Under the pieces are notes generated by a model. The model saw only the letters and a list, made by a program, of their open reading frames with translations, ran no database searches and had not been told where the DNA came from. This document shows, piece by piece, positions 31,766 to 59,831 of a DNA stretch of 64,000 nucleotides (positions within the stretch are counted from its first letter, which is position 1; each line of letters opens with the position of its first letter). The translations under genes and the position numbers were made by a program. Location of the stretch: IMG/VR virus record IMGVR_UViG_3300028837_000875, positions 24,572-88,571 of that record. One strand, written 5' to 3'. Source of the DNA: a virus.

Positions 31766-31788
31766 CAACCATCTCTCTATTCTCTCGG

Positions 31789-31815
31789 GGAAGCTCTGCG
31801 GAGCTTCCTTTTTTT
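31789..31815 (+). terminator. Rho-independent terminator
   Basis: GGAAGCTC-TGCG-GAGCTTCC followed by T7. Confidence 0.85.
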
Positions 31816-31879: not shown

Positions 31880-33187
31880 TTGATGAAGGACAATCTGGTT
31901 ATCGGTGGAGGCATATCAGGCCTCATTTTTTGCTATTACAATCCTGAGTTTTATTTGATTACAGATTCTCTTGGAGGCTTGCTCAAACAAGAGGGTAAAT
32001 TTGGAGTAATGACTTTATGGGATACTCCAGAAACTCGAAAGCTCTTAAAAGATTTAGATATTGAAGTCAAGCCGTACAAGGCAGAGATTAGATATTTCTT
32101 CAATGGTAAAATTTATGAAGTGGCTCCTGACGTTTTGCGTCGTGAATACATTCAAAAAAAGATGGGGCAGCTTGCACACAAAATTGACTTTGCAGATTTG
32201 GCTTTGTCTACTGACGAGACGAATTATATTCCTGCTCTCAAAGTTGACTTTGATGTGCTCATGGAAAAGTTGCTGCACGAAGTTGAGAGCCGAAAGAATT
32301 ATATGATAGCTACAATTTCAGAAATTCGAGATGATTCAATTACTCTTTATGATATGAAGAGTCCTTCAAGAATAATGAAATATAAAACGCTTGTCTCTAC
32401 TATCCCAGCATTTCTATTTTGGTTGATGTGGAAAGGACGAGAGTGCAGAGAAGTTTGTGTTCCAGGAGAATTTGCTTTCAGTCCAACTACTACAGTTTCT
32501 ATGAAAGCTCCTCATAAAAATTTGATTTCACTCTTTGATGAAATGAACGGAATGATTCCAGCGTATATCTATTATCTTGATAACTCAAGATTTCATAGAT
32601 TCTCGCACAGCTCTCAAGGCTGTTACGCTTTTCAGTTTGCAGGAGAGATTTCAAAGGAAGAGATTGCAATATATCTTGAAGTAGATGAATCTGATTTAGA
32701 ATATCGAGTCGAGAAGATAGGGCAGTTCGTTACGCACAAGGGTAACATTCCTCCACGCAATATTATGTTTCTTGGAAGGCATGCGCAATGGGATTATAAA
32801 GTTAAGGTCCAGGACATTGTGCGTGTCTCTCGATTCTCTAAGTTCATGCTTGCTGATATGAGGAGCAGGCAATCAAGATTCAATAAGAACTTTATGGACT
32901 TCAATTCGCTGAGCTTTGAAGATAGACAGCGATTGACTGAGAAGTGGATTCTGTATGTGCAGGCAGAGTTGACCGAACTCTTGGACGAAACAAACTGGAA
33001 GTTGCATCGGCCTGGAAAGGAGATTGAAAAGAGCAAGATATTAAATGAGTGGATTGATTCTTTGAAGTTTTTATTAGGTATTGCAGATATTTGGGGCTTT
33101 GACAATGCGGAGATATTCAAGGCGTTCCACGATAAGAGCGACTTTGTTGAGAAACGTTTTCAGGAGGAAGAGAAGAATGGGAAATGA
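31880..33187 (+). CDS. FAD-dependent oxidoreductase fused to all-alpha dimeric dUTPase/NTP-pyrophosphatase
   Basis: VIGGGISG Rossmann motif and LGRHAQW; C-terminal AELTELLDETNWK...NEWIDSLKF...AFHDKS. Confidence 0.75.
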   Translation: MMKDNLVIGGGISGLIFCYYNPEFYLITDSLGGLLKQEGKFGVMTLWDTPETRKLLKDLDIEVKPYKAEIRYFFNGKIYEVAPDVLRREYIQKKMGQLAHKIDFADLALSTDETNYIPALKVDFDVLMEKLLHEVESRKNYMIATISEIRDDSITLYDMKSPSRIMKYKTLVSTIPAFLFWLMWKGRECREVCVPGEFAFSPTTTVSMKAPHKNLISLFDEMNGMIPAYIYYLDNSRFHRFSHSSQGCYAFQFAGEISKEEIAIYLEVDESDLEYRVEKIGQFVTHKGNIPPRNIMFLGRHAQWDYKVKVQDIVRVSRFSKFMLADMRSRQSRFNKNFMDFNSLSFEDRQRLTEKWILYVQAELTELLDETNWKLHRPGKEIEKSKILNEWIDSLKFLLGIADIWGFDNAEIFKAFHDKSDFVEKRFQEEEKNGK

Positions 33188-34112
33188 GTTTGAGTCAATC
33201 ACAGAGTTCCATGGCAAGAAAATGTTGAATGCATTTCATAAAGGAGAGAAGCCGAAAACAGATTTCAAAGATTCTTCGGATTCTGTTAGAGTTGCTTTGC
33301 TTAATTATTCTCCAAGTGTATACGAGGACATGTTCTGGTTCATCATGGGCTCGTATGGAAACGAAGCCAACAAGAGAAAGCAGTTCACTCCTTCAGAGGA
33401 AGATATTGAAAAGGTTATTGAAGCTTGCTTGAATCGTGAAGCAATGCCGTTAGCTCTTGAAATTCCGAAGTTTACTTTCGTAATATGGGGCATTGATAGA
33501 ATCATCACTCACCAGATAGTCAGAAACAGAATTGGTGTTGTGTATTCTCAACACTGTACGGGAGACAATGACATACGTCATGTAGATTTTCTCCTGCCAC
33601 ATCGAATGATAGGAGCAAACACAGAGGACGAAGTAGATTTCAGGATGCGAGTGAAGGAATGGCATAGAGTTGGCAAGGCACTCTACGCAGAAGGCATTGA
33701 CGTCCATGGATATTCCATGCAGGACATGAGGCACATGATGCCGCAGGACGTGGATACGTACGTAATGATGAGTTGTAATTACATGATGCTTCAGAACTTT
33801 GTCGGCCGGCGTCTCTGCTCAAATGAGACGATGCAGATTCAGCGAGTAGCAGAATTGATTAAAGAGGAAGTGACAAAGGTCTATCCGTTTCTTGGTCGTC
33901 ATCTAATGAGCAATTGCGATAGAGCAAAGAGATGTCACTTCAAGAAGAATGGAACAATCTTTGGAGGTTCTGTTTATTATCCTTGCGGCAAGTATCCATG
34001 GAGCAGCAAAGAAGCTCCTGACCCGGAGGCATTCATTCACCCTATGACTTCAGAAGAAATCAGACAGGTAGAGAATCCGGCTTACAGACATTTAGAATCT
34101 GAGCAGGATTAG
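33177..34112 (+). CDS. thyX: ThyX-like flavin-dependent enzyme with non-canonical motifs
   Basis: FTFVIWGIDRIITHQIVRNRIG..YSQHC; QDMRHMMP; FVGRRLC. Confidence 0.75.
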   Translation: MGNEFESITEFHGKKMLNAFHKGEKPKTDFKDSSDSVRVALLNYSPSVYEDMFWFIMGSYGNEANKRKQFTPSEEDIEKVIEACLNREAMPLALEIPKFTFVIWGIDRIITHQIVRNRIGVVYSQHCTGDNDIRHVDFLLPHRMIGANTEDEVDFRMRVKEWHRVGKALYAEGIDVHGYSMQDMRHMMPQDVDTYVMMSCNYMMLQNFVGRRLCSNETMQIQRVAELIKEEVTKVYPFLGRHLMSNCDRAKRCHFKKNGTIFGGSVYYPCGKYPWSSKEAPDPEAFIHPMTSEEIRQVENPAYRHLESEQD

Positions 34113-34264: not shown

Positions 34265-34804
34265 ATGATAATTTCAGTAGAAGGACCTGACGGATGTGGA
34301 AAGACAAGCTTTGCAAAAGAGCTTGAAAAGAAAACAGGCTTGCCAATAATCGAGTACAACTTTCAGATTGTTGGAGGCAATAGAAAAGAAGAACTTGCAT
34401 ATATTCAAATGCTTTCGTTTGTTGCCATCTCTTTTCATTTTAATTTCATCCGTGATAGGCATCTAATGTCTAATATGGTTTATGCATCTATATTTTCTGA
34501 TGATTGTTATTGGCGTAAATATCTTGAGCTAATAGAAAGGACTCAAATACTCATTGCATATATTCACGTTCCAGCAGAAGAATTGATTAAGAGAATCAAG
34601 CAGCGTGAAGCAAGTGATGGAATTAAAGAGCCTGAAGATATACTTCTAAACTTGTTGGTGGCACATGAAAGTTTTGAAACTGCTTATTTTGAAATCAAGA
34701 AAAGATTTCCAGAGAAGATAATCAAACTTGATGGCTTGCTGACAATTGAGGATATGGTCAGTGATTATTTCAAGAAAAGACTCCAGCAAGAAAGGCAAAC
34801 ATGA
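34265..34804 (+). CDS. Thymidylate/dNMP kinase
   Basis: IISVEGPDGCGKTS P-loop; IRDR..SNMVY. Confidence 0.8.
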   Translation: MIISVEGPDGCGKTSFAKELEKKTGLPIIEYNFQIVGGNRKEELAYIQMLSFVAISFHFNFIRDRHLMSNMVYASIFSDDCYWRKYLELIERTQILIAYIHVPAEELIKRIKQREASDGIKEPEDILLNLLVAHESFETAYFEIKKRFPEKIIKLDGLLTIEDMVSDYFKKRLQQERQT

Positions 34805-35856
34805 AACCTTATACTGAAAAGAAATTCGAGAAAATCTTTCCTTGGTTTGAAGCAATCAATCTTGATTTGCTGAAGGCACCAGTTGCAGTAAGACTTTTGG
34901 TGACAGATAAGTGCGCTTGCAAATGTCACATGTGTACGCACTGGAAGATGAAAAAGTTTTACTCGCTCGATTATAAAACGTTCAGTTCAATTGTGCTTGC
35001 TTGTCAGAACAATGGAACTCAATCTATGTTTCTTTCAGGAGGAGATGTCTTTTCTTGGGAGTGCTGGGAAAGATTTTTGAAAGATGAAGAAATTACAATT
35101 GCTGCTCTGACTGTTACGCCATTGATAATTCCAAAAAGCTTTGACAAAGATTTGCTCAAGAGACTCAAATGGCTACGAGTTTCTTTTGATGCAATCAAGA
35201 GTGAAACGTTCAAAAAAATCAGAGGCGTAAACGCGTTGTCATCTGTAAAGCATGACTTGTCTTATATCCTCGCTAACAAATTGGTAGAGGATATCGGCAT
35301 GACAACTGTTTTGCAGAAGGATAATTTTTCAGAGATTATAGAGATGGGTGAATACTTCGTTAACTTGGGCATCAAGAGATGGATAGTTCAGCCAGTCAAT
35401 TATAATCCAAGGCTCAGCTTAACTCCTGAAGCAATACAAATGCTTGGCTATCAGTTGAGCAAGAAGTTTGGTGAAGCCATACCAACAAACAATTTCGATG
35501 TCCTTCAAAGCGATTTCAGTCTTTGGAATTCTACTCACAATCTGCCTTGCATAATTCCGCGCATGGAAGCATTCATTGATACAAGACTCAGGGTATGGCC
35601 TTGCTGCAATCTTGCTCAAGATGCGCACGGAGATGAAGAAAGAGCAGAGAGATTGAAAATGGGTACGTTTATACAAGGCGCAAGTGCCGGTGAATATTTC
35701 CTTGAGCTTTGGCGTGAACGTAGAAATCTGCTCGATAAATTTACTGACTTCAAAGACATTCATCCTTTATGCAAGCAGACATGTAAGTTCAAATACTTCT
35801 ACTATAATCTTGGCTTTGATTGGTGCAGAAAAAACAGAGAAGCTATTTATATTTGA
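34801..35856 (+). CDS. Radical SAM protein with SPASM/twitch domain
   Basis: CACKCHMC (CxxxCxxC), LSGGD, VSFDA, LPC...VWPCC...CKQTC. Confidence 0.85.
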   Translation: MKPYTEKKFEKIFPWFEAINLDLLKAPVAVRLLVTDKCACKCHMCTHWKMKKFYSLDYKTFSSIVLACQNNGTQSMFLSGGDVFSWECWERFLKDEEITIAALTVTPLIIPKSFDKDLLKRLKWLRVSFDAIKSETFKKIRGVNALSSVKHDLSYILANKLVEDIGMTTVLQKDNFSEIIEMGEYFVNLGIKRWIVQPVNYNPRLSLTPEAIQMLGYQLSKKFGEAIPTNNFDVLQSDFSLWNSTHNLPCIIPRMEAFIDTRLRVWPCCNLAQDAHGDEERAERLKMGTFIQGASAGEYFLELWRERRNLLDKFTDFKDIHPLCKQTCKFKYFYYNLGFDWCRKNREAIYI

Positions 35857-35867
35857 TAGGATGTAAT

Positions 35868-36482
35868 GTGCCTCAAATTTCAGAAAGAATGCTGATTAGG
35901 AAACACCGATTTCATTTGGAGCGTTCTATTCAAGAATGTTCAGAGTGCAGCATACATAGAAACGAAGAGAATATACAATCCAAATCTATGGGTAATGGCA
36001 ATTGCTATGACCCTGATATTTTTTTCATAGGCTTAGCTCCTTCTCAGAATAGACGGCCGCTCAAGCAAGATAAGCATGGCAACAAAATTCCTCTAAGAAC
36101 ATTTGAGTATTTAGTAGGTGGAAGATTTAGAAGATTGCTCAAGAGCTTAGGACTATATGAGAGAAGCTATCTAACAAATCTACTCAAGTGCAGCACTCCT
36201 GATAATAGAAAACCAAAACACACAGAAATAAAAAATTGCTCAGTATGGTTTCACAAGGAATTCAATATGCTATCTCCCAGAGCCATTGTCCCTTTGGGCA
36301 ATGTTGCAAGACGTGCTCTCGAAAGAACGATGCAAATGACAGATGACAACAGAGGATTTTTATTTGGCGTAGAGGTAATCGTCATCAATTGCTTTCATCC
36401 GAATTATTGTTATAGCTATGGTGGAATAACTGAGGAACGTTATGCCGAGCTATTATTAAAAGTAGAGAAAGAGTTAGAGTGA
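35868..36482 (+). CDS. Uracil-DNA glycosylase family 4-like (Fe-S) protein with divergent motif A
   Basis: CSEC, FFIGLAPS, YLTNLLKC...NRKP...EIKNC, FHPNY; overlaps the dnaE start. Confidence 0.75.
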   Translation: MPQISERMLIRKHRFHLERSIQECSECSIHRNEENIQSKSMGNGNCYDPDIFFIGLAPSQNRRPLKQDKHGNKIPLRTFEYLVGGRFRRLLKSLGLYERSYLTNLLKCSTPDNRKPKHTEIKNCSVWFHKEFNMLSPRAIVPLGNVARRALERTMQMTDDNRGFLFGVEVIVINCFHPNYCYSYGGITEERYAELLLKVEKELE

Positions 36483-39400
36483 AAAGATTTCCTAAAAAGT
36501 TAGACATGACCATTCCGGAATATGAAGAGGATAAACATCTGTATACACCCATTCATGTTCATTCTTCGTATTCTCTTTTTGATTCAGTCAGCACAATCAT
36601 GGAGATTCCAGAAGTTGCCAAGAAGCTTGGAATGAAAGCTGTCTCTTTATCTGACCATGGAACAATGAGCGGTACGTTTTCTTTTGTCGAGCATTGCAAA
36701 AGTAGTGGAGTTAAACCAATTGTAGGCTGTGAGTTCTATGTCAATCCAAGAAGATTAAAAAAAGATAAAGATGCAAACAACCAACACTTGTGTTTGTTTG
36801 CAATGAACATGGAAGGATGGAAGAATCTACTCAAGATAACTTATGACGCAGTTACTAATGGATTCTACTTCAGGCCAAGAACAGATTTGGATTTTATAGC
36901 TGAGCATTCGGAAGGACTCATTTGCACTACTGCTTGCATGGCCTCGCCAATCATCAAGCCGTTTCTCGATGATAATAAAAAGCAAGCTCTAAACAACTTG
37001 AAAAAGTTGAAAGAAGTTTTTGGAGATAGGCTGTACATAGAATTTCAATTCAACGAATTGGATATTCAAAAAAAGATTGTAGACTGGCTTGAATTTATTA
37101 CCAAACGCTTTGGTCTCAAATCTTTGTATGGACTTGATTCTCATTACACGTATCCGAATGATGTGTATCTGCAAGATATTATAAAACTCAATAGAAGAAA
37201 GATGACTGTATATGATGCCAATTGGCAGGAGGCGATTTTTGATATACGTAGACTTTTTATTAAGCCGTTTCAAGTGGCTCTCGACGAACCTGAGGAACTG
37301 GGATTCAAAGTAACCAAACAACGAGTTCGGTCACTTTTAGAAACAACTAATGAGCTTGCAGGTAGAATTCATTTTGAGTTTGAATTAGGATTGCACGCAC
37401 CTGTTTATGAGCATCGTGGCAAAGCGGTAGACCAAGCCAAGTTTTTGAAGCTTCAAATTCAACGCGGCTTCTTGAAGAAAATCAAACAAGGTATGATTCC
37501 AAAAGGACAAGAGGAAGCTTATAGAAAAAGAACATGGTATGAATATGAGCAGATACTTAAATGCGGTTATCCAAATTATTTCTTAATGATTTGGGATATG
37601 GTTCGCGTTGCTGTAAGGCGTGGAATACAAAAGGGCATAGGCAGAGGCAGTGCTTCTGGTTCGCTTGTGTCTTTTGTTCTTGATATAAGCGGAGTGGACC
37701 CCATCAAACATGGCTTGCTCTTCGAGAGATTTCTTGACGTAGAAAGAAAAGACCCACCAGATATAGATTTAGACTGGGAATCAGAACGCAGAAATGAGAT
37801 TGAAGATTATCTTGTCGAGAAGTATGGAAAAGAAAAAGTAGCTCATGTTGCAACGTTCAGTTATTGGGGAACAAAGTCTGCTCTCAGTGAAGTATTCAAA
37901 ACGCTTGGAGAAGATGGAAGTCCTATCTTCGAGATGTCAAAATGGATTCGTTCTGATGAAAAAGACATTCGATATGCAAAGCATGTTGATGATGCTATTG
38001 AATGGCTGAGAAAATATTGTCCGAAAAATGAAGTGATAGATTTAGTTGATAGACAAATGGAACTGGGCGTACCGCTTGCAAAGCGGCTGGTTGATAATGT
38101 GCGTCATGTAGGTTTGCACGCCGGAGGAATTGTCGTCTCTCCTAAGCCGATATGGGAATACATTCCAGTGATTCAGCATAAAGGAAAAATTGTAACTGGT
38201 TTTCCTCAGAGTTCAGAAATACGAAGAGGAGAATGGGGAACGCTTGAGAAAATAGGATTGATAAAGATTGATAATCTTGGAGTCAATTCAGTCTCTACAA
38301 TTAAAGCAACACTTCTCTTGATAAAAGAGAGGCATGACTTAGATTTGTTTGAGCATATATGGAAAGTTGAGTTAGATGATTCTGAGGTATATCGTTTTTA
38401 TGCTGAGTGTTTTACGGAAGGTGTATTTCAAGTAGAGTCAGATAGCATAAACAATTTTATCAGAAGATTGAAGCCAAGCAATTTCAGTGACATCTGTGCT
38501 CTTATGGCTTTGTATAGACCAGGTAGTTTGCAATCAGGAGAATCAGAACGCTTTATAAAGCGCAAGGCTGGAAAAGAGAAGATTGAATATGTACATCCAA
38601 AGCTCAAGAAATATCTTGAGGATACGTATGGGTGTTTTGTTTATCAAGAGCAGCTAATGTTTATCATGCAAGAGCTGGCTGGCTTTGGAAAAGGAGAAGT
38701 TCTACGCAAGATGAAACTTCTCAAGCAAGCATATGATGTCAACAATGTAGATGTGCTTGCAATGGTAAAGCGATTGAGAGAGGAATTGATAAGGCTTTCT
38801 AACTTTACAGAAAAGCAAGCAGATGAATTAACTGAAATGATGCGCAAGTGTTATGCGTATATCTTCAACAAATCTCACGCGACTTCTTATGCGTTCTTCT
38901 CATACCAAATGATGTGGCTTAAAGTACATTATCCTATTGAGTTCTTTTGTGGATTGCTTTCTCGCACGGAGAATCAAATCACAGAATTGAAAGGTGGTGC
39001 AATCAAGTTAAAAATTAAGAAGTATATCTCCGCAGCAAAAAAGCTTGGCATCACAGTTCTTCCTCCAAAGTTTGGAGTATCTGGAAGTGAATTCAAAATT
39101 ATAGATGACAGCACAATTGTTGCTGGTACTCGCATCATAGTTGGCATCGGCAAATCAGCGGCAGAGCTTGACAAGACTGTGGATGATTCCTGCTTTGAGG
39201 ATTTTGTCTGCAATGAAAATATACAGTGGCAGAAACTCAACAAAAGTAAAGTTGAGAAGCTAATAAAAATTGGCTACTTTGATGATTCAGTAAAGACAAG
39301 AAAGAGCATCACCAAAAAACAATTAGTACATGCATGGAAGCTTTACAACGAGAGAAAGAAAAAGAAATGTGAAAGAGATACGATAGTAGAAGCAATCAAA

Positions 39401-39934
39401 GAATCAGTCAAGATAGTTGAAGGAGAATATAGCAAAGCAGAGTTGCTTGAGTTCCAGATTCAAATGTTCAGATTTTTCTTTACTGAACATCCGTTAGAAT
39501 CAAAAGACATAGTCAATCTCATTTGGAAATACAATAAGAAGCAATCTAAGAAAGCACTCAAGATACGCAAGGTCTCTGAGCTTAATTCATCTTCCGCTAA
39601 GCGTGGCACAATGATAGGTTATATCTCAAGCATAAGACGTACAGTGCCGAAGTGCGGCCCATCTAAGGGTGAGCAAATGGCAATTGTCACAATAGAAGAT
39701 AACAGAGATAAGGCAAGAGTTCTTATATGGCCTGAGTTCTATGAGATTCCAGAATATAAAAAGTTGCTGAAAGAGGGAAACGTTCTTGTGCTCAGATTGA
39801 AACGCAAGAAACAATCTGGTGAGGAAGATTCAAAAGTATATGAGCTTGCAGATATTAGCGGCAAAGCACAATTGGTGAGTGCGGTAGACTTGGGTAGAAG
39901 AATAAAGAGAAACACAAAAAGAAAGAAGGAATAA
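36479..39934 (+). CDS. dnaE: DNA polymerase III alpha subunit (family C)
   Basis: PHP HVHSSYS/SDHG, GRGSASGSLV, FERFL, PDIDLD, FNKSHA, C-terminal OB fold. Confidence 0.95.
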   Translation: MKRFPKKLDMTIPEYEEDKHLYTPIHVHSSYSLFDSVSTIMEIPEVAKKLGMKAVSLSDHGTMSGTFSFVEHCKSSGVKPIVGCEFYVNPRRLKKDKDANNQHLCLFAMNMEGWKNLLKITYDAVTNGFYFRPRTDLDFIAEHSEGLICTTACMASPIIKPFLDDNKKQALNNLKKLKEVFGDRLYIEFQFNELDIQKKIVDWLEFITKRFGLKSLYGLDSHYTYPNDVYLQDIIKLNRRKMTVYDANWQEAIFDIRRLFIKPFQVALDEPEELGFKVTKQRVRSLLETTNELAGRIHFEFELGLHAPVYEHRGKAVDQAKFLKLQIQRGFLKKIKQGMIPKGQEEAYRKRTWYEYEQILKCGYPNYFLMIWDMVRVAVRRGIQKGIGRGSASGSLVSFVLDISGVDPIKHGLLFERFLDVERKDPPDIDLDWESERRNEIEDYLVEKYGKEKVAHVATFSYWGTKSALSEVFKTLGEDGSPIFEMSKWIRSDEKDIRYAKHVDDAIEWLRKYCPKNEVIDLVDRQMELGVPLAKRLVDNVRHVGLHAGGIVVSPKPIWEYIPVIQHKGKIVTGFPQSSEIRRGEWGTLEKIGLIKIDNLGVNSVSTIKATLLLIKERHDLDLFEHIWKVELDDSEVYRFYAECFTEGVFQVESDSINNFIRRLKPSNFSDICALMALYRPGSLQSGESERFIKRKAGKEKIEYVHPKLKKYLEDTYGCFVYQEQLMFIMQELAGFGKGEVLRKMKLLKQAYDVNNVDVLAMVKRLREELIRLSNFTEKQADELTEMMRKCYAYIFNKSHATSYAFFSYQMMWLKVHYPIEFFCGLLSRTENQITELKGGAIKLKIKKYISAAKKLGITVLPPKFGVSGSEFKIIDDSTIVAGTRIIVGIGKSAAELDKTVDDSCFEDFVCNENIQWQKLNKSKVEKLIKIGYFDDSVKTRKSITKKQLVHAWKLYNERKKKKCERDTIVEAIKESVKIVEGEYSKAELLEFQIQMFRFFFTEHPLESKDIVNLIWKYNKKQSKKALKIRKVSELNSSSAKRGTMIGYISSIRRTVPKCGPSKGEQMAIVTIEDNRDKARVLIWPEFYEIPEYKKLLKEGNVLVLRLKRKKQSGEEDSKVYELADISGKAQLVSAVDLGRRIKRNTKRKKE

Positions 39935-46385: not shown

Positions 46386-46681
46386 AAAAGAAACTGAGAA
46401 AGAAGAAAATAAAAACTGAAGTCGAAATATGGGAGCCGCTTAGTGATTGCGTGATGCTCTCTATTATAGATTCTCCTCCCGAATTACACAAGTGTAAAGT
46501 TTTGAAGGTTGGTCCAGGTATTCCAACCTATATGGGAACTATATATCCCACAGGAATAAAAGTTGGTGACATCGTATTGATAAGTCGTTATCCGCATATA
46601 GATTTGTTCAAAGGCAAGGAGCGTATTATATTAGTTAGAGCTACGAAAATTCTCGCGCTTTGCAAGAAAGTGAAATCATAA
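46376..46681 (+). CDS. groES: GroES/Cpn10-like co-chaperonin lacking the mobile loop
   Basis: EPLSDCV...KVLKVGPG...IKVGDIVL...VRATKILA. Confidence 0.7.
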   Translation: MGMKKKLRKKKIKTEVEIWEPLSDCVMLSIIDSPPELHKCKVLKVGPGIPTYMGTIYPTGIKVGDIVLISRYPHIDLFKGKERIILVRATKILALCKKVKS

Positions 46682-47265
46682 TGAAGATAAAGAAAATCAA
46701 AGTTGCAGCTTTTCCTAAAAAGAAATACACAGTTATTTATGCAGACCCACCCTGGCCATTTGGTAGTAGAACAAGAGGACCAAAAACTTCTGACCCATTT
46801 GTATCAATTGCTACTCATTATCCAACTATGAGCGTCAAAGAAATCTGTGCTCTGCCTATATCTCAAATCTCAAACAGCACGTGCGCTTGCCTCTTGTGGG
46901 TGCCTGATGCTTTTCTTGATGAAGGAATTCAAGCTCTTAAATCTTGGGGCTTTAAGTATAAAACAGTTGCGTTTGTTTGGTCTAAGATTACAAAGAACGG
47001 AAAGCAAGTTTGCAATAAAGCTCCTTACACAATGAAGAATTGTGAGTTGGTTTTGCTTGGCACTCGAGGACCAGTTACAAAGCTTATGAAAAAAAGAAAC
47101 GTAAGACAATTACAGATAGCAATCAGACCAAAGCAGCATAGCGCAAAACCAGACGAGATTAGAAACAAGATAGTAGAAATGTTTGGTAAGAGAGTCAAGC
47201 GGATTGAATTGTTTGCTCGAAAGAAATCTGAAGGCTGGGATTCGTGGGGCAATGAAATAAAATGA
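46681..47265 (+). CDS. MT-A70 family N6-adenine methyltransferase
   Basis: IYADPPW, HYPTMS, HSAKP, IELFAR, GWDSWGNE. Confidence 0.9.
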   Translation: MKIKKIKVAAFPKKKYTVIYADPPWPFGSRTRGPKTSDPFVSIATHYPTMSVKEICALPISQISNSTCACLLWVPDAFLDEGIQALKSWGFKYKTVAFVWSKITKNGKQVCNKAPYTMKNCELVLLGTRGPVTKLMKKRNVRQLQIAIRPKQHSAKPDEIRNKIVEMFGKRVKRIELFARKKSEGWDSWGNEIK

Positions 47266-48197: not shown

Positions 48198-48829
48198 AGA
48201 AAAAAAGAATCAAGTTGACAGACAATCCTTGCTTCATTGGCTTGGACATGTCTATTAACGGAACTGGAATTTGCATCTTCAACAATGTGCAGAATATGGT
48301 TCACGTTGAGGTTGTTGAACCAAAACTTCTTGCAAGCTCTGATGTAGCAAAATGCGTCATAGGCAGATTAAGAATTTCTGACTTCAGTAGATACAGAGAG
48401 GTAGTCAATAGAATCATTCAACTCATTAAAGCATTTCAAGTCAAGGCAGTAGTAATTGAGAATTATGCTTTTGGTATCAGGAAGTCTAAATCTCTAACAA
48501 AACTTGGTGAGCTTGGCGGGATATTAAGAAATGCCTTGATTGATATGAGTATTCCTTTTACTGAGGTTACACCTAACTCAGCAAAGAAATTCATCAGCGG
48601 CAAAGGTGTATGTCCTGAACCTCTAATGCTTCTGAAGGTTGCAAAGAAATGGAAAGAGGAATTCGATTCAGTCAAGGATAGAAGAAAGATTGATGCAGCG
48701 ATAGCATATGGCCTTGGCAGAATTGCCTGGAACATATATTCTGAGAAATCAAAAATGAGTGATTTGCTTGAGTACGAAGTTGAAGTGTTAAAGAAGATTG
48801 CGAAGGATAAAGATGCCAAGGATAATTAA
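48194..48829 (+). CDS. RuvC-like Holliday junction resolvase
   Basis: IGLDMSINGTG, VVIENYAF, LGELGG, VTPNSAKKF. Confidence 0.8.
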   Translation: MKKKRIKLTDNPCFIGLDMSINGTGICIFNNVQNMVHVEVVEPKLLASSDVAKCVIGRLRISDFSRYREVVNRIIQLIKAFQVKAVVIENYAFGIRKSKSLTKLGELGGILRNALIDMSIPFTEVTPNSAKKFISGKGVCPEPLMLLKVAKKWKEEFDSVKDRRKIDAAIAYGLGRIAWNIYSEKSKMSDLLEYEVEVLKKIAKDKDAKDN

Positions 48830-49373
48830 AGCAACTTGGGATAATCTATATCACATGTGGAAAGACTGCAAGAGATGTGACTTGCATGAAAACCGCAGTC
48901 GAGTTGTCTTTGGCAAAGGTCCAAAGAAAGCGAAAATCTTTTTGATTGGTCAGGCTCCTGGAAAGACTGAAGATAAACTTGGAAAACCATTTGTAGGTTT
49001 GATGGGTAAACTGCTTAGAGAAATGATGGAAGCAATAGGAATGAGTCCTGATAGAATGTACATTTCTAATTCTGCGGCTTGTTATCCTCTTGCGGATGCA
49101 ATGCCCACAGTTCATCAAGTAAAAATGTGCTATCCAAGATTGAAGATGGAAATTGAGTTAGTAAAACCAAAATTCATTATCTATTGCGGAATGAGAGCCG
49201 CTACAATTTCTGGCTTGTGTGAAGAGTACGCAAGATTCTTTGAACAGTTCAAGACTTTATTTATGAATCATCCGGGTTCTATCAGAAGGGACTCGGGAAG
49301 AAAAGAAGATATAAGAAAGCAACTTCAATTTATTAAGGATGCTATCATAAGAGATGGAGGGAAAGTAGCGTGA
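48813..49373 (+). CDS. Uracil-DNA glycosylase family 4
   Basis: CKRCDLH, VFGKG, IGQAPG..ED..GKPFVG, YISN...C, HPG. Confidence 0.85.
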   Translation: MPRIIKATWDNLYHMWKDCKRCDLHENRSRVVFGKGPKKAKIFLIGQAPGKTEDKLGKPFVGLMGKLLREMMEAIGMSPDRMYISNSAACYPLADAMPTVHQVKMCYPRLKMEIELVKPKFIIYCGMRAATISGLCEEYARFFEQFKTLFMNHPGSIRRDSGRKEDIRKQLQFIKDAIIRDGGKVA

Positions 49374-52300
49374 TAAAATTTCCGAAGCTTGGCTACAAGA
49401 TTACAGAGAATGCCTTGGCAGTTCTGAAAGAACGTTATCTTTTTAGAAATCCAGAAGGAGAGATAATCGAGAATCCATCAGAAATGTTTTGGCGCGTAGC
49501 TAAGTATGTTGCTTCAGTTGAAAAGACAAAAGCAAAAAGAATTAAATGGACTGAGATATTCTATGATTTGATGGCATCGGGTGATTTCATGCCGAACACA
49601 CCGACGTTGTTAAATTCAGGCAGAGAAAATCTTTCAGTCCTTGCTGGTTGCTTCGTCATAGAGGTCAACGATACTATTTACGGAGGACTTGATTCTATTT
49701 TTGGTTCAATAGAACTCATGGCATTGATTCATAAGATGGGTGGAGGAACTGGTTGCTCATTTCATAAGCTTCGCCCACATGGAGCACGCGTTACTTCTAC
49801 TGGTCATGTTGCTTCAGGACCGGTGTCCTTCATGCGCAACTTTGATGAAGCGATTGAAGCAATTCAGCAAGGTGGCATGAGACGTGGAGCACACATGTCA
49901 ATAATGAAAGTAGACCATCCAGACATCGAAGAATTTATTGAATGCAAGAATAAGTTGAATCAAAGAACAAAAGTTGTTCTTGATAGAATAACGAAAGCCT
50001 TGCATCTTGATTTGGATGGAGAGTTCAGAACAATAATCAAAGAAGCTATCATTCGTTCACAACTGACAAACATGAACATTTCAATATCATTGACTGCTGA
50101 ATTTAAACAAGCTTTGAAGAAAGGAACTTCATACGATATAGTAAGTCCTCAGACTGGCAAAGTAGTCAGACAAGAAAATGCAGGACGCATTTTTAATCTC
50201 ATGGCTCAGAATGCTTGGAAGTCAGGAGAGCCTGGCTTTATTGATTTAGAAAGAATCAATGCAGATAATACTTGTCCGCATCTTGGGGAAATATATTCAA
50301 CCAATCCTTGTGTAGTTGGAGATACTCCAGTTTCAACAGTAAATGAAGGACCTCAAATCTTTGAGGATTTAGTTGGTAGAGAAGTTTTGGTTTATGCTTA
50401 TGATAATAAGAGTAGTGAAATCAAAGTAAGTATGATGCGCAACATACGAAGAACTGGTAAAAACATTCCTATTATGAAATTGGTAATTGATAAAGGAACT
50501 GCTAATGGTATTTTGAGTCAAGATTATAATGGACGTTTTGAAGAACACAAATTGACTCCTGAACACAAACTGTATTTAAGAAACGGTTTAGAAGTGATGA
50601 TAAAGAACTTAGTTCCAGGAGACAGATTGTTTCCGCATCAAATTAAAGCAAGCGGAAGAGCGAGAGTAGTTATAAGAAATGGATTAGGCAAATATAAATC
50701 TCGCTCTCATTATGTAGCAGAATATAAGTTTGGGAGAAAGCTTAGAAATGATGAAGTAGTTCATCACAAAGATGGCAATGGCAGTAATGATAATCCTGAA
50801 AATCTTGAAATTGAAACTGATAGTTATCACAAATCACATCATTGTAGAGACTCAAATTTAAGTGGCATACGAAGTTTGAAAGGCTCTAAGAATCCAAACT
50901 TTAATCATATCAAAAAAGAGACATTGATATATTATGGATGTCTCTGTGTTTCTAAGTATGGAACTGTCAGAAACGGAAGTGTTTGGAATGAGTTCAGAAA
51001 AGAAGTTAGAGAAATTGAGTTGCCAGGAAGAGGAACTATTGAAAGGCTATTTGGCAGTTATCGTGAGTTTCAAGAAGCATGTATCTTATCTTCTGTTTTG
51101 ATTGAAAATCACAAAGTTGTTTCAGTTGAATACTGTGGCAAAGCAGATGTATTTAATGGAACTGTAGATAAGTATCACAACTATTTCATTGCGGATAGAA
51201 AGGCGCGTTCTGGGAATTTAGTTACAGGAATACTCAGTAAAAATTGTGGTGAACAGCCGTTGAGACCATTTGAGTCTTGCACGCTTGGTTCAATTGCTGT
51301 TTCAAGAATGGTTGAAAAGAAAAATGGACAGCTCAAATTTGACTATGTCAAGTTCAAAGAAAGAATTTATCAGGCCATACGCTTTCTTGATAACGTTCTT
51401 GATGCACAAAAGTATCCAGTGTCTGAGATAAAAGAAGAATCACAACGTACTCGTAAGATAGGCCTTGGAGTTATGGGTTTTGCAGATTTGCTAATTAAGT
51501 TTGGCATTCCGTATGGCTCTCAAGATTGTATTGATTTGATTCATGTGATGATGTCTAAGTTTGAGATACAGACTCGTCGAGCTTCAATAGACCTTGCAAG
51601 AGAAAAAGGAAAGTTTCCAGCTTGGAAAAAATCGACTTATGGCAAACAAGGATTGCCGATGCGCAATGCAATGCGGACAACAATAGCGCCAACAGGTTCA
51701 ATCTCTGGGATAGCTGGAGTTTCGTTTGGCATTGAACCGCTTTATGGTTTATCTTTCACTCGTAGAATCTTGGACGGTAAAACATTTGTTGAAGTTTCAG
51801 AGGTTGCAAAAGAAGCATTGAAGCGCAAACATTGTTGGAGTGAAAGAGCAGAGCAAACGATTCGTGAAGATGGTACACTAAATAATTGTGAATGGATTCC
51901 TCCTGATATTAGAATGGCATTCAAGACAGCACACGAGATAAATCCCGAAGAGCACTTAATAGTTCAAGCAGCGTTTCAGAAATATATTGATAATGCTGTT
52001 TCCAAAACAATCAATCTTCCAAACTCTGCTACTGTTGAGGATGTCAACAATATATTCAGGAGAGCAATTGAATTGAAGTGCAAAGGCATCACTGTATATC
52101 GTGATGCTTCAAGAGAAGAACAAGTTCTAACTACAGGAAAAGCAAAGTTTCAATCAATTAGAGAAGTTAGAAAGAGACCAAGAAAGCTTAATGGAACAAC
52201 CTACGAAAAGCAAGTTGGAGAATGCGGCAAGCTTTTTGTAATAGTCAATTCAGATAAAGATGGTTATCCATTTGAGATTTTCATTGAGGCTGGAAAATCG

Positions 52301-52630
52301 GGTGGCTGTATGCAGTCTCAACTTCAAGCTATTGGAAGATTGATTTCAAAATCTTGGCAGAGCGGTTTGGGATTAGAAACAATAGTCAAGCAGTTGACAG
52401 GAATTACTTGTCATCAGTCTAAGCCTTCGTTTGATAAAAAACAATCGTTTCTATCTTGTGCGGATGCAATTGCAAAAATTATTCAAGAACATTTTATTGG
52501 AGAGGAAGGAGAGGAAGAGCAGTTTGATGAAAAGCCAAAGAGTAATATCTGCTCGTATTGCGGAGGGCCGATGATACATGAAGGACATTGTTCTACATGC
52601 ACGGCTTGTTTCAAAAGTTTATGTGGATAG
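49370..52630 (+). CDS. nrdJ: Class II (B12-dependent) ribonucleotide reductase with intein and C-terminal TSCPD/Zn domain
   Basis: VLKERYL, FMPNTPTL, GGGTG, QQGGMRRGA, NP|CGEQ, TIAPTGSIS, SKTINLP, KGITVYRD. Confidence 0.92.
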   Translation: MIKFPKLGYKITENALAVLKERYLFRNPEGEIIENPSEMFWRVAKYVASVEKTKAKRIKWTEIFYDLMASGDFMPNTPTLLNSGRENLSVLAGCFVIEVNDTIYGGLDSIFGSIELMALIHKMGGGTGCSFHKLRPHGARVTSTGHVASGPVSFMRNFDEAIEAIQQGGMRRGAHMSIMKVDHPDIEEFIECKNKLNQRTKVVLDRITKALHLDLDGEFRTIIKEAIIRSQLTNMNISISLTAEFKQALKKGTSYDIVSPQTGKVVRQENAGRIFNLMAQNAWKSGEPGFIDLERINADNTCPHLGEIYSTNPCVVGDTPVSTVNEGPQIFEDLVGREVLVYAYDNKSSEIKVSMMRNIRRTGKNIPIMKLVIDKGTANGILSQDYNGRFEEHKLTPEHKLYLRNGLEVMIKNLVPGDRLFPHQIKASGRARVVIRNGLGKYKSRSHYVAEYKFGRKLRNDEVVHHKDGNGSNDNPENLEIETDSYHKSHHCRDSNLSGIRSLKGSKNPNFNHIKKETLIYYGCLCVSKYGTVRNGSVWNEFRKEVREIELPGRGTIERLFGSYREFQEACILSSVLIENHKVVSVEYCGKADVFNGTVDKYHNYFIADRKARSGNLVTGILSKNCGEQPLRPFESCTLGSIAVSRMVEKKNGQLKFDYVKFKERIYQAIRFLDNVLDAQKYPVSEIKEESQRTRKIGLGVMGFADLLIKFGIPYGSQDCIDLIHVMMSKFEIQTRRASIDLAREKGKFPAWKKSTYGKQGLPMRNAMRTTIAPTGSISGIAGVSFGIEPLYGLSFTRRILDGKTFVEVSEVAKEALKRKHCWSERAEQTIREDGTLNNCEWIPPDIRMAFKTAHEINPEEHLIVQAAFQKYIDNAVSKTINLPNSATVEDVNNIFRRAIELKCKGITVYRDASREEQVLTTGKAKFQSIREVRKRPRKLNGTTYEKQVGECGKLFVIVNSDKDGYPFEIFIEAGKSGGCMQSQLQAIGRLISKSWQSGLGLETIVKQLTGITCHQSKPSFDKKQSFLSCADAIAKIIQEHFIGEEGEEEQFDEKPKSNICSYCGGPMIHEGHCSTCTACFKSLCG
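50309..51244 (+). mobile_element. Intein (312 aa) with HNH homing endonuclease
   Basis: Interrupts NP|CGE; starts CVVGDT, block B LTPEH, ends VFNGTV..YHNY...ILSKN; internal VHHKDGNGSNDNPENL. Confidence 0.9.
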
Positions 52631-58397: not shown

Positions 58398-59831
58398 ATG
58401 AGCAAAATCATTTGTGCAAAGTCTGAGGAGCTACTTCCAAAGCTTCAAGCAGAGAGTTTTGATTTGCTCTGCACTGACCCACCATACGGAATGAGTTTTA
58501 TGGGCAAGGAATGGGATAAAGCACTTCCGGATAAAGAGATATGGAAAGAGTGCTTGCGAGTCTTGAAGCCTGGAGCGTTTGCTTTTGTAATGTGCATACC
58601 AAGAGCAGATTGTCTTTGGAGAATGATACGTGATTTAGAGCTTGCAGGATTTATAATCAAGTTCACTCCAATGTATTGGGCATATGCATCTGGATTTCCA
58701 AAAGCTCAGAATATTGGAAAGACACTTGAGAAAAGACATAGGAAACCGGATAAAATAGTTGAAGTAAATGGATGCGGAGGTATGAAGAACAGTAAGGGAT
58801 ATAATACAACTAAACGACGTTTCATATATGATAAGTTTGAAAGCAATGAAGCAAAAGAGCTTAATGGTTCTTATGCAGGCTTTCAGCCTAAGCCAGCAGT
58901 AGAAGTTATCATCGTTGCAATGAAACCGTTGAACGAAAAGAATTACGTTGAGCAAGCTCGAAAGAATAAGAAAGGAATTACTTGGATTGACGATTGCAGA
59001 ATACCAGTAACGGATGGAAGAAAATTAGATGGAGGTGGATATTCTGGAGGAGAGCATAAGGGCCATTCAACTTGCTGGCCTGGCAGTAAGAGATTGACAG
59101 CTGGGGAATTTGAAACTCCACAAGGCCGCTTCCCTGCTAACTTATTAGTCTCTGATGATGTCTTGAATGATGGGGTTGAAAGAAAATCAGTTGGAGGTGG
59201 GAATCCAGAAAAAAGCGGAATGCAATTTACAAACAAATATGGTGAATACAATCAAGTAGACCAGTGGTCCGGTCAAGGTGGTTATAAAGACTCAGGTTCA
59301 TTTTCCAGATACTTTGATATAGATAAATGGTTCTCTGAAATGCTCAAGCAGAGATTAGGCAGCAAGTTTGAAAGAGCAGCAAAGACATTTCCATTTCTGT
59401 TATCTCCAAAAGCATCAAAGACTGAGAAATGGTTTTACTGTAGAGTCTGCAAAAGCACACAAGAAGCTGCAAGAGAGAAGGAGCATCACAGCCATGTTTG
59501 TTGGTGTAAAGACTGTCAGGAAATGATAAGTCAAAAGAGAATGAAGCAATGCAAAAAGAAAAAGCACAAACTTGTTCCCAATCTTATATATCATCCTACA
59601 GTCAAGCCATTAAGATTGATGGCTTATCTCGTGACTCTTGGTTCAAGAGAAGGAGATAAAGTCCTTGACCCATTCGCTGGTACATGCAAGACTGCAATGG
59701 CTTGTGAGTTGCTCAAGCGCAATTATCTAATGATTGATTCTGACAAGATAGCTCTCAAGCTTGGCAGAGCAGGAATAGAGGCGTTGGATAATCCTCCGTT
59801 GAGAAAGAAGCTGTTGAAACGAATAGAGTAA
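58398..59831 (+). CDS. N4/N6 DNA methyltransferase (beta class)
   Basis: TDPPY, GFPK, GRFPAN, HPTVKP, VLDPFAG. Confidence 0.9.
   Translation: MSKIICAKSEELLPKLQAESFDLLCTDPPYGMSFMGKEWDKALPDKEIWKECLRVLKPGAFAFVMCIPRADCLWRMIRDLELAGFIIKFTPMYWAYASGFPKAQNIGKTLEKRHRKPDKIVEVNGCGGMKNSKGYNTTKRRFIYDKFESNEAKELNGSYAGFQPKPAVEVIIVAMKPLNEKNYVEQARKNKKGITWIDDCRIPVTDGRKLDGGGYSGGEHKGHSTCWPGSKRLTAGEFETPQGRFPANLLVSDDVLNDGVERKSVGGGNPEKSGMQFTNKYGEYNQVDQWSGQGGYKDSGSFSRYFDIDKWFSEMLKQRLGSKFERAAKTFPFLLSPKASKTEKWFYCRVCKSTQEAAREKEHHSHVCWCKDCQEMISQKRMKQCKKKKHKLVPNLIYHPTVKPLRLMAYLVTLGSREGDKVLDPFAGTCKTAMACELLKRNYLMIDSDKIALKLGRAGIEALDNPPLRKKLLKRIE

Follow-up and report, generated by a model that had tools for sequence, protein, structure and literature searches.

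The window analysed here, 64,000 nt of the virus record IMGVR_UViG_3300028837_000875 (positions 24,572-88,571), carries at 33177-34112 the gene of P0001, a protein of the ThyX family with a rewired active site. P0001 belongs to a virus-only module composed of a flavoprotein, a pyrophosphatase, the ThyX-like protein and a deoxynucleoside monophosphate (dNMP) kinase beside the phage DnaE. We give an even chance to the reading that P0001 is a pre-replicative pyrimidine-C5 modifying enzyme with a flavoprotein partner, and not the phage's synthase of deoxythymidine monophosphate (dTMP). Judged from residues and gene context, a changed reaction appears favoured over ordinary dTMP synthesis. In the literature no description was found of the clade of P0001 or of a flavoprotein-dependent ThyX.

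The gene and its ribosome binding site were located as follows:
33162-33167, plus strand: Shine-Dalgarno sequence AGGAGG, 9 nt ahead of the ATG at 33177 (sequence reading).
33177-34112, plus strand: rewired ThyX-fold protein P0001, 'class C', 311 amino acids (aa) (Pfam Thy1, TIGR02170, AlphaFold2 (AF2), Foldseek).

The open reading frame (ORF) 33177-34112 and its ATG start are real. The start methionine was common to all close homologues, and the start overlaps the stop codon of the upstream gene. P0001 is a true member of the ThyX family, as a first-pass annotation of the sequence had proposed. Pfam PF02511 (Thy1) matched with an E value of 8e-21 and 75 bits versus a gathering cut-off of 24.8, covering profile positions 5-190 of 191; the NCBI thyX equivalog TIGR02170 gave 45 bits, under its cut-off of 87.9. 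The AF2 model, calculated with 91 homologues as input, had a predicted local distance difference test score (pLDDT) of 92. Foldseek with this model retrieved ThyX proteins and PolB only, with E 1e-10 and probability 1.0 for 3gwc, 2af6, 1o26 and 4p5b; the proteins reached at probability 1.0 were ThyX of Mycobacterium tuberculosis (Mtb), Thermotoga maritima and Helicobacter pylori, and PolB, so that the comparison with ThyX profiles and structures confirmed the fold. An exhaustive homologue search with P0001 yielded 906 representatives at E<1e-3. Non-canonical members were the majority among the best 150 homologues, and the family extends over hundreds of viral contigs. One database protein of 7571 aa, P0013, was hit by P0001 at 70 distinct places (269 bits); it probably reflects an error of assembly or gene calling, or else a tandem array.

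Residues were mapped in a 91-sequence MAFFT alignment that included canonical-type members, with the roles taken from published work on ThyX and PolB (PMC11940539, PMC6514825, PMC5003785). The segments concerned are:
33450-33464, plus strand: L-A-L-E-I; E95 invariant, I96 in place of the folate/flavin-stacking His (T. maritima H53).
33510-33581, plus strand: active-site segment, H112-Q113...R116-x-R118-I-G...Q125-x-C127-T128-G129-D130-x-D132-x-R134-H135, replacing RHR-x7-S-x-R-Y.
33777-33785, plus strand: N201-Y202-M203, in place of N-x-R, a contact to the phosphate of flavin adenine dinucleotide (FAD) (Mtb R190).
33810-33818, plus strand: R212, then C214; the pyrimidine O2 contact is kept (Mtb R199, T. 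maritima R174, PolB R193).
33915-33986, plus strand: C-terminal Cys cluster C247, C253 and C270, forming with C214 a Cys3-(Cys/Asp) pattern.

Set against the canonical enzyme, single positions of P0001 were assigned thus:
Kept, R108, R116, R118 and R185: canonical phosphate contacts.
Kept, Q113 and Q125: canonical 3'-OH contacts.
Lost, I96: canonical His stacking on folate and the reduced flavin (FADH-).
Lost, N117, variable in the clade: canonical His of R-H-R.
Lost, C127-T128-G129-D130: canonical Ser-x-Arg-Tyr (Ser; O4-binding Arg; Tyr as lid/acid).
Lost, M203: canonical Arg of N-x-R.

The kept residues form a coherent set. E95, R108, H112, Q113, R116, R118, Q125, R185 and R212 were present in 91 of 91 or nearly all aligned sequences; R108, R116, R118, Q125, R185 and R212, corresponding to Mtb R87, R95, R97, Q103, R172 and R199, were invariant or more than 90% conserved, and R212, whose equivalent contacts O2 (PMC5003785), was invariant in all 91. 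Gone are the equivalents of T. maritima H53, H79, S88, R90 and Y91 and of Mtb S71 and R190. H53 is the folate/flavin-stacking His, and S88 and Y91 are strictly conserved and critical, mutation of Y91 slowing flavin oxidation 1000-fold (PMC11940539). In the column of I96 the clade has I, A, T, S, L or V, with His in canonical-type members only. The canonical contacts to the FAD phosphate and ribityl chain are not matched either, since N117, L92 and M203 replace the His of RHR, Mtb S71 and the phosphate-contacting Mtb R190 (PMC6514825). In the ThyX motif test P0001 reads R-N-R-x8-C-T-G-D, not R-H-R-x7-S-x-R-Y, with one extra Gly after R-x-R relative to canonical ThyX. The first-pass annotation had placed RNR...CTGD at 33522-33566, where R116-N117-R118...C127-T128-G129-D130 indeed lies, and, by manual alignment, S-x-R-Y on CTGD, EH on EI and N-x-R on NYM; this agrees with the 91-sequence alignment, which puts S-Q-R-Y on C127-T128-G129-D130, LEH on LEI and N-x-R on NYM. 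Two of the substitutions it stressed are properties of this protein but not of its clade: the Asn replacing His at position 117 alternates with S, T, Q and A, and position 127, where Cys replaces Ser, is C, G or A and presents no conserved change.

The conserved novelty is the motif G-[D/E]-x-D-x-R-H. G129, D/E130, D132, R134 and H135 were fully or almost fully conserved across 40 class-C proteins of 20-30% identity, and the AF2 model had pLDDT values of 97-98 across this loop. Conservation at such low overall identity speaks for a new active site maintained by purifying selection, and not for decay. The distance from Q125 to P141 is 16 residues in P0001, in the canonical-type protein P0077 and in Mtb ThyX alike, thus the loop aligns without a gap. 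The HMMER pairwise alignment instead paired R134-H135 with the canonical Arg-Tyr via a 5-residue gap, whereas MAFFT puts S-Q-R-Y on C-T-G-D. The HMMER pairing is less parsimonious and was rejected on two grounds: R129 and R134 occur side by side in class B proteins, and the loop lengths match. Four motif classes were distinguished:
Class A: motif fully canonical.
Class A': RHR and Arg kept, Tyr lost.
Class B: His lost, Arg129 kept, plus D132-x-R134-H135.
Class C (P0001): Arg129 replaced by Gly; D/E130, D132, R134 and H135 present.

Class C was monophyletic in a FastTree phylogeny, and its clade is mostly viral. D132 and R134 are lost in a subclass with C-T-G-D-R-[MF]-x-[HNS]-H (L103, L116, L121 and the metagenome loci L027, L030, L036, L039-L041, L045 and L052), which has a short ORF of about 160-180 aa directly downstream; in G005, G010 and G011 this ORF had Pfam matches of 25-32 bits to the ThyA family, making up a pair of ThyX-like protein and mini-ThyA.

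P0001 ends in a Cys-bearing extension of roughly 75 residues. Among the 91 sequences, C214 was present in 78, C247 in 77 and C253 in 83, while position 270 was C in 40 and D in 35. The Cys3-(Cys/Asp) cluster, beside the O2-binding Arg, is probably a structural metal site (Zn or Fe-S). The pattern is common to classes A, B and C and also to P0170, P0171 and the Pbunavirus and XcP1 proteins. The Cys-rich tail reported in the first-pass annotation (C214, C247, C253, C270) is thus present, but as a marker of functional change it was ruled out, because canonical-motif members of the wider clade share it.

Canonical ThyX of T. maritima (TM0449) and M. tuberculosis has its fold in common with P0001 (target TM-score up to 0.80), as well as the R-x-R pair, the equivalents of Mtb R87, R172 and R199 and the 3'-OH-binding Gln residues. 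P0001 differs in lacking Ser-x-Arg-Tyr, both His residues (in R-H-R and in L-E-H) and the N-x-R Arg, and in having the new motif, the Cys-bearing extension and the flavoprotein neighbour. PolB, to our knowledge the only experimentally shown neofunctionalised ThyX paralogue, is a C5-methylase of uridine and deoxyuridine monophosphate (UMP, dUMP) in polyoxin biosynthesis, also named SVIThyX2 (4p5a, 4p5b), and was among the best structural matches (target TM-score 0.76). Its uracil methylation is still folate- and NADPH-dependent; O4 is bound by R98, and the variant Y99A is almost dead (PMC5003785). PolB keeps R-H, S96-A97-R98-Y99 and the FAD pocket, exactly the residues that P0001 has lost. The ThyX of Corynebacterium glutamicum (3ge9, 3fnn), described by its PDB titles as structurally atypical and dispensable for thymidylate synthesis, is a cellular protein, and its phmmer match to P0001 was marginal (E 0.25).

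The neighbourhood of P0001 contains the following features:
31787-31810, plus strand: terminator-like hairpin with T-run, just upstream of the module (consensus scan only).
31880-33187, plus strand: flavoprotein-pyrophosphatase fusion, 435 aa (Pfam dUTPase_2, AF2, Foldseek, hhalign, kept adjacency).
34265-34804, plus strand: P-loop kinase resembling dNMP or thymidylate kinases (Pfam, PHROG 761).
34801-35856, plus strand: radical SAM-like protein, peripheral; the closest relative, L002, is the only one that shares it.
35820-36482, plus strand: uracil-DNA glycosylase (UDG)-superfamily protein (Pfam UDG); a UDG-like gene also adjoins the ThyX-like gene in L003.
36479-39934, plus strand: DnaE-type DNA polymerase III alpha, with homologues in L002 and L005.

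The fusion protein combines a flavoprotein resembling UDP-galactopyranose mutase (UGM), amine oxidases and renalase (about aa 1-318) with an all-alpha nucleoside triphosphate pyrophosphatase of the dimeric-dUTPase type (aa 326-412). Its AF2 model (pLDDT 88.8) matched UDP-galactopyranose mutases, amino-acid and amine oxidases, protoporphyrinogen oxidase and renalase in Foldseek, in agreement with a lead from the ESM atlas; phmmer against PDB sequences returned noise only. The comparison of gene contexts covered 84 loci from viruses and metagenomes, plus another 80 from viruses. In these loci the non-canonical ThyX-like gene is closely preceded by flavoprotein and pyrophosphatase, either as a fusion or as separate genes, and P0001 itself has a same-strand flavoprotein homologue within about 1.6 kb. 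Such a flavoprotein within 1.6 kb was found for 66 of 84 ThyX-like proteins without the catalytic Tyr versus 1 of 8 that keep it; this count refers to non-redundant loci with enough upstream sequence, and since the loci are related by descent the Fisher p of 3.6e-4, uncorrected for phylogeny, is to be read as a tendency and not as a probability. Over about 90 loci, flavoprotein adjacency tracked the loss of catalytic Tyr and His. With a hidden Markov model (HMM) seeded on the kinase of the P0001 phage, a dNMP kinase was detected near 33 of 47 class-C loci versus none of 32 class-B loci, and 15 metagenome loci had DnaE in the vicinity of their ThyX-like gene. The radical SAM gene was ruled out as a member of the conserved module, with one homologue among about 84 loci. 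When two copies of the ThyX-like protein were modelled as a complex with the flavoprotein domain, the score was 0.00, which was not taken as evidence for or against an association.

Some carrier genomes encode further members of the thymidylate synthase families. The genome of P0001 has two ThyA-family genes upstream of the window (L001:3799-4551 and L001:5281-5991). One has the dUMP-type Asn at the position of Escherichia coli N177 (RSWDLWGGLPPN), the other Asp (RSWDLWNEFSFD), as do ThyA relatives that modify deoxycytidine monophosphate (dCMP). A 253-aa ORF between the two paralogues had no Pfam match. Near the pair are a DUF488-N3a protein (L001:1665-2057) and MazG (L001:6967-7518), which suggests a second nucleotide-modification module. 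In G002, the closest complete relative (95.9 kb, 100% complete, terminal repeats), the class-C gene is accompanied by a ThyX with every canonical motif (LEH, RHR-x7-SQRY, NLR) and by a dCMP deaminase; G004 (91% complete) likewise has a fully canonical ThyX and a dCMP deaminase, in addition to a ThyX-like gene more degenerate than class C. The latter (L005:9971-10945) lies directly after DnaE in this 207-kb virus, reads A-D-Q for T-H-Q and lacks the Cys cluster; about 8 kb away are a homologue of the flavoprotein and another ORF that matches the fusion protein.

Homologous gene pairs occur in cultured phages. A tblastn search with the flavoprotein domain of this phage against 50,697 cultured phage records gave no match, and a first flavoprotein HMM did not detect XcP1 and R12; the link was obtained only via an intermediate family member. 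A more distant flavoprotein from L153 had matches in 362 records of cultured phages, among which Pseudomonas phages accounted for 292, and hhalign connected the flavoprotein family of this phage with that of XcP1 gp50 and Pbunavirus R12 gp30 (99.4%, E 2e-21). The pairs are found in Pbunavirus (R12 gp24 and gp30; F8), the Xanthomonas phage XcP1 (gp49 and gp50) and Serratia phages of the MyoSmar type. The ThyX-like partner resembles P0001 in being Tyr-less and His-less, with a Cys-bearing tail and a position in a replication module near the DNA polymerase. These pairs differ in having no dUTPase fusion, and in place of a dNMP kinase they have a polynucleotide kinase/phosphatase and a FabG-like reductase next to them. 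Pbunavirus and XcP1 have a single ThyX-like protein of this kind (R-T-R ... T-S-R-A) and no ThyA, the flavoprotein gene of XcP1 is directly upstream of it, and the 3.1-kb segment concerned recurs in F8 at 92% identity. In XcP1 (L006) and R12 (L007) the ThyX-like gene is followed by the polynucleotide kinase/phosphatase, in XcP1 also by the FabG-like reductase. For the actinophage Xenia2 (DV-cluster), a comparable set has been listed, with an oxidoreductase, a phosphatase, a FabG-like reductase, MazG, DnaE and a ThyX-like gene (PMC11385102). According to a 2025 preprint, virion DNA of F8 and 14-1 contains hypermodified thymidines of 362 and 390 Da that replace about a quarter of T in TG context, and Pbunaviruses are without known hypermodification genes (PMC12191111). 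As mass arithmetic only, 362 equals deoxyuridine (dU) + aldopentose + 2H - H2O and 390 equals dU + aldohexose - H2O.

If P0001 is a pyrimidine-C5 modifying enzyme, the all-alpha pyrophosphatase domain would convert a pyrimidine deoxynucleoside triphosphate (dNTP) to the dNMP, which the rewired ThyX-fold enzyme would bind via the kept contacts to phosphate, deoxyribose and O2. A carbon substituent would then be added at C5 by flavin-based chemistry dependent on the UGM/renalase-like partner. The product would be unlike dTMP, G-[D/E]-x-D-x-R-H replacing the residues for O4 binding and methylation and the folate-stacking His; the adjacent dNMP kinase would phosphorylate it, and the phage DnaE, the likely consumer of the module's product, would incorporate it. 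Which nucleotide is used, what is made from it and how the partner contributes are our inference, the base being that of dUMP or dCMP. For the subclade of P0001 the acceptor leans towards cytosine, because the O4-binding Arg is lost, invariant acidic residues are gained and the gene complement of G002 is T4-like. Pre-replicative replacement in phage T4 employs the gene products (gp) gp56 dCTPase/dUTPase, gp42 dCMP hydroxymethylase and gp1 dNMP kinase together with cd and td. The same roles recur in the module and in G002, which has an NTP pyrophosphatase, a candidate C5-transferase, a dNMP kinase and a dCMP deaminase and, apart from these, a thymidylate synthase. The C5-transferase of T4 has the ThyA fold, whereas the candidate here has the ThyX fold and is proposed to need a second flavoprotein.

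Several observations weigh against such a modifying enzyme. In 22 long viral contigs examined besides G002 and G004, the non-canonical ThyX-like gene was usually the sole thymidylate-synthase-like gene; with G002 and G004 counted in, it was the sole ThyA/ThyX in 11 of the 14 viral genomes at least 90% complete. A constant coexistence with a canonical synthase was thereby ruled out. A module of dUTPase-like protein, ThyX and dNMP kinase fits ordinary supply of thymidine triphosphate (dTTP) as well. An enzyme acting on dCMP would do work already expected of the phage's own Asp-type ThyA. The Pbunavirus ThyX-like protein is only about 24% identical and keeps Arg129, and in F8 three quarters of the thymidines are normal while the TG context points to a post-replicative step (PMC12191111). 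The change of substrate or reaction postulated in the first-pass annotation is partly backed by the loss of critical residues, the new motif, the flavoprotein partner and the extra canonical synthase, but the sole copies stand against it.

The same sole copies keep a divergent two-component thymidylate synthase a serious rival, which we regard as possible though rather doubtful. The partner would carry out the oxidation of NAD(P)H or the reduction of flavin, the new loop would activate dUMP, and the product would be dTMP. The fold and all contacts to phosphate, sugar and O2 are kept, intermediates from canonical to rewired were found (classes A' and B), both the dUTPase-like domain and the thymidylate-kinase-like neighbour suit dTTP supply, and the partner has the size of renalase, an enzyme that binds NAD(P)H. 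Such an enzyme would, however, be redundant with the Asn-type ThyA in the P0001 genome and with canonical ThyX in G002 and G004. It would also lack residues that are critical in every validated enzyme (PMC11940539, PMC5003785), and modified thymidine is reported for cultured phages with the homologous gene pair (PMC12191111).

The resemblance of the partner to UDP-galactopyranose mutases, which were among its best structural matches, raises the question of sugars. We consider it unlikely that P0001 acts on something other than a free pyrimidine dNMP, i.e., on a DNA or RNA base, a ribonucleotide or a nucleotide-sugar, with the UGM-like partner supplying or processing the sugar. The Pbunavirus modification is sugar-derived and dependent on sequence context (PMC12191111), and PolB documents that the ThyX fold can shift its sugar specificity (PMC5003785), but the residues for the monophosphate and the 3'-OH are kept in full, and the linkage with a dNTP pyrophosphatase and a dNMP kinase favours a pathway of free deoxynucleotides. 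Equally improbable in our estimate is a chemistry in which ThyX-like protein and UGM-like flavoprotein use a flavin-N5 iminium to attach a non-folate electrophile, possibly a sugar carbonyl, to C5 of the pyrimidine; it would lead to C-C-linked sugar-bearing bases and would explain the loss of the folate-stacking His, and the two nucleoside masses of Pbunavirus DNA agree with it by arithmetic alone. If the acceptor in the subclade of P0001 were dCMP, such an enzyme would be the first flavin-dependent cytosine-C5 alkylase. That P0001 is a catalytically dead relic, kept as nucleotide-binding or regulatory subunit, is very improbable: the canonical catalytic residues are gone, but the new loop is near-invariant across a large and diverged clade and well ordered in the AF2 model, and the gene has kept its place in operons with enzymes.

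The record as a whole is a viral contig of 88.6 kb, with a completeness estimate of 78%. P0001 lies within a replication module with every gene on the plus strand, which includes helicases, DnaB, primase, DnaE, RecA, an SbcCD-like pair, flap endonuclease (FEN), RuvC, class II ribonucleotide reductase (RNR) and DNA methyltransferases. The class II-like reductase (1086 aa, window 49370-52630) contains an intein-like insert with an HNH endonuclease and a C-terminal TSCPD domain. UDG-superfamily genes occur twice in this phage, at 35820-36482 inside the module and at 48798-49373 before the reductase gene. The window further encodes, at 46660-47265 and 58398-59831, an MT-A70 family methyltransferase and an N6/N4 DNA methylase, thus the phage also has ordinary post-replicative methylation.

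All phage pre-replicative pyrimidine modifications known to us, the formation of hydroxymethyl-deoxycytidine (hm-dC), hydroxymethyl-deoxyuridine (hm-dU) and 5-methyl-deoxycytidine (m5-dC), begin with ThyA-fold enzymes. If a ThyX-fold enzyme did such work, aided by a second flavoprotein of its own, modified DNA would be reached by a new enzymatic route. The family includes cultured, therapy-relevant Pbunavirus phages; as their thymidine hypermodification is without known biosynthetic genes, the pair of ThyX-like protein and flavoprotein is an immediately testable candidate. Should P0001 be only a divergent thymidylate synthase, a ThyX would work without the residues held essential, which would bear on the mechanism of these enzymes and on inhibitor design.

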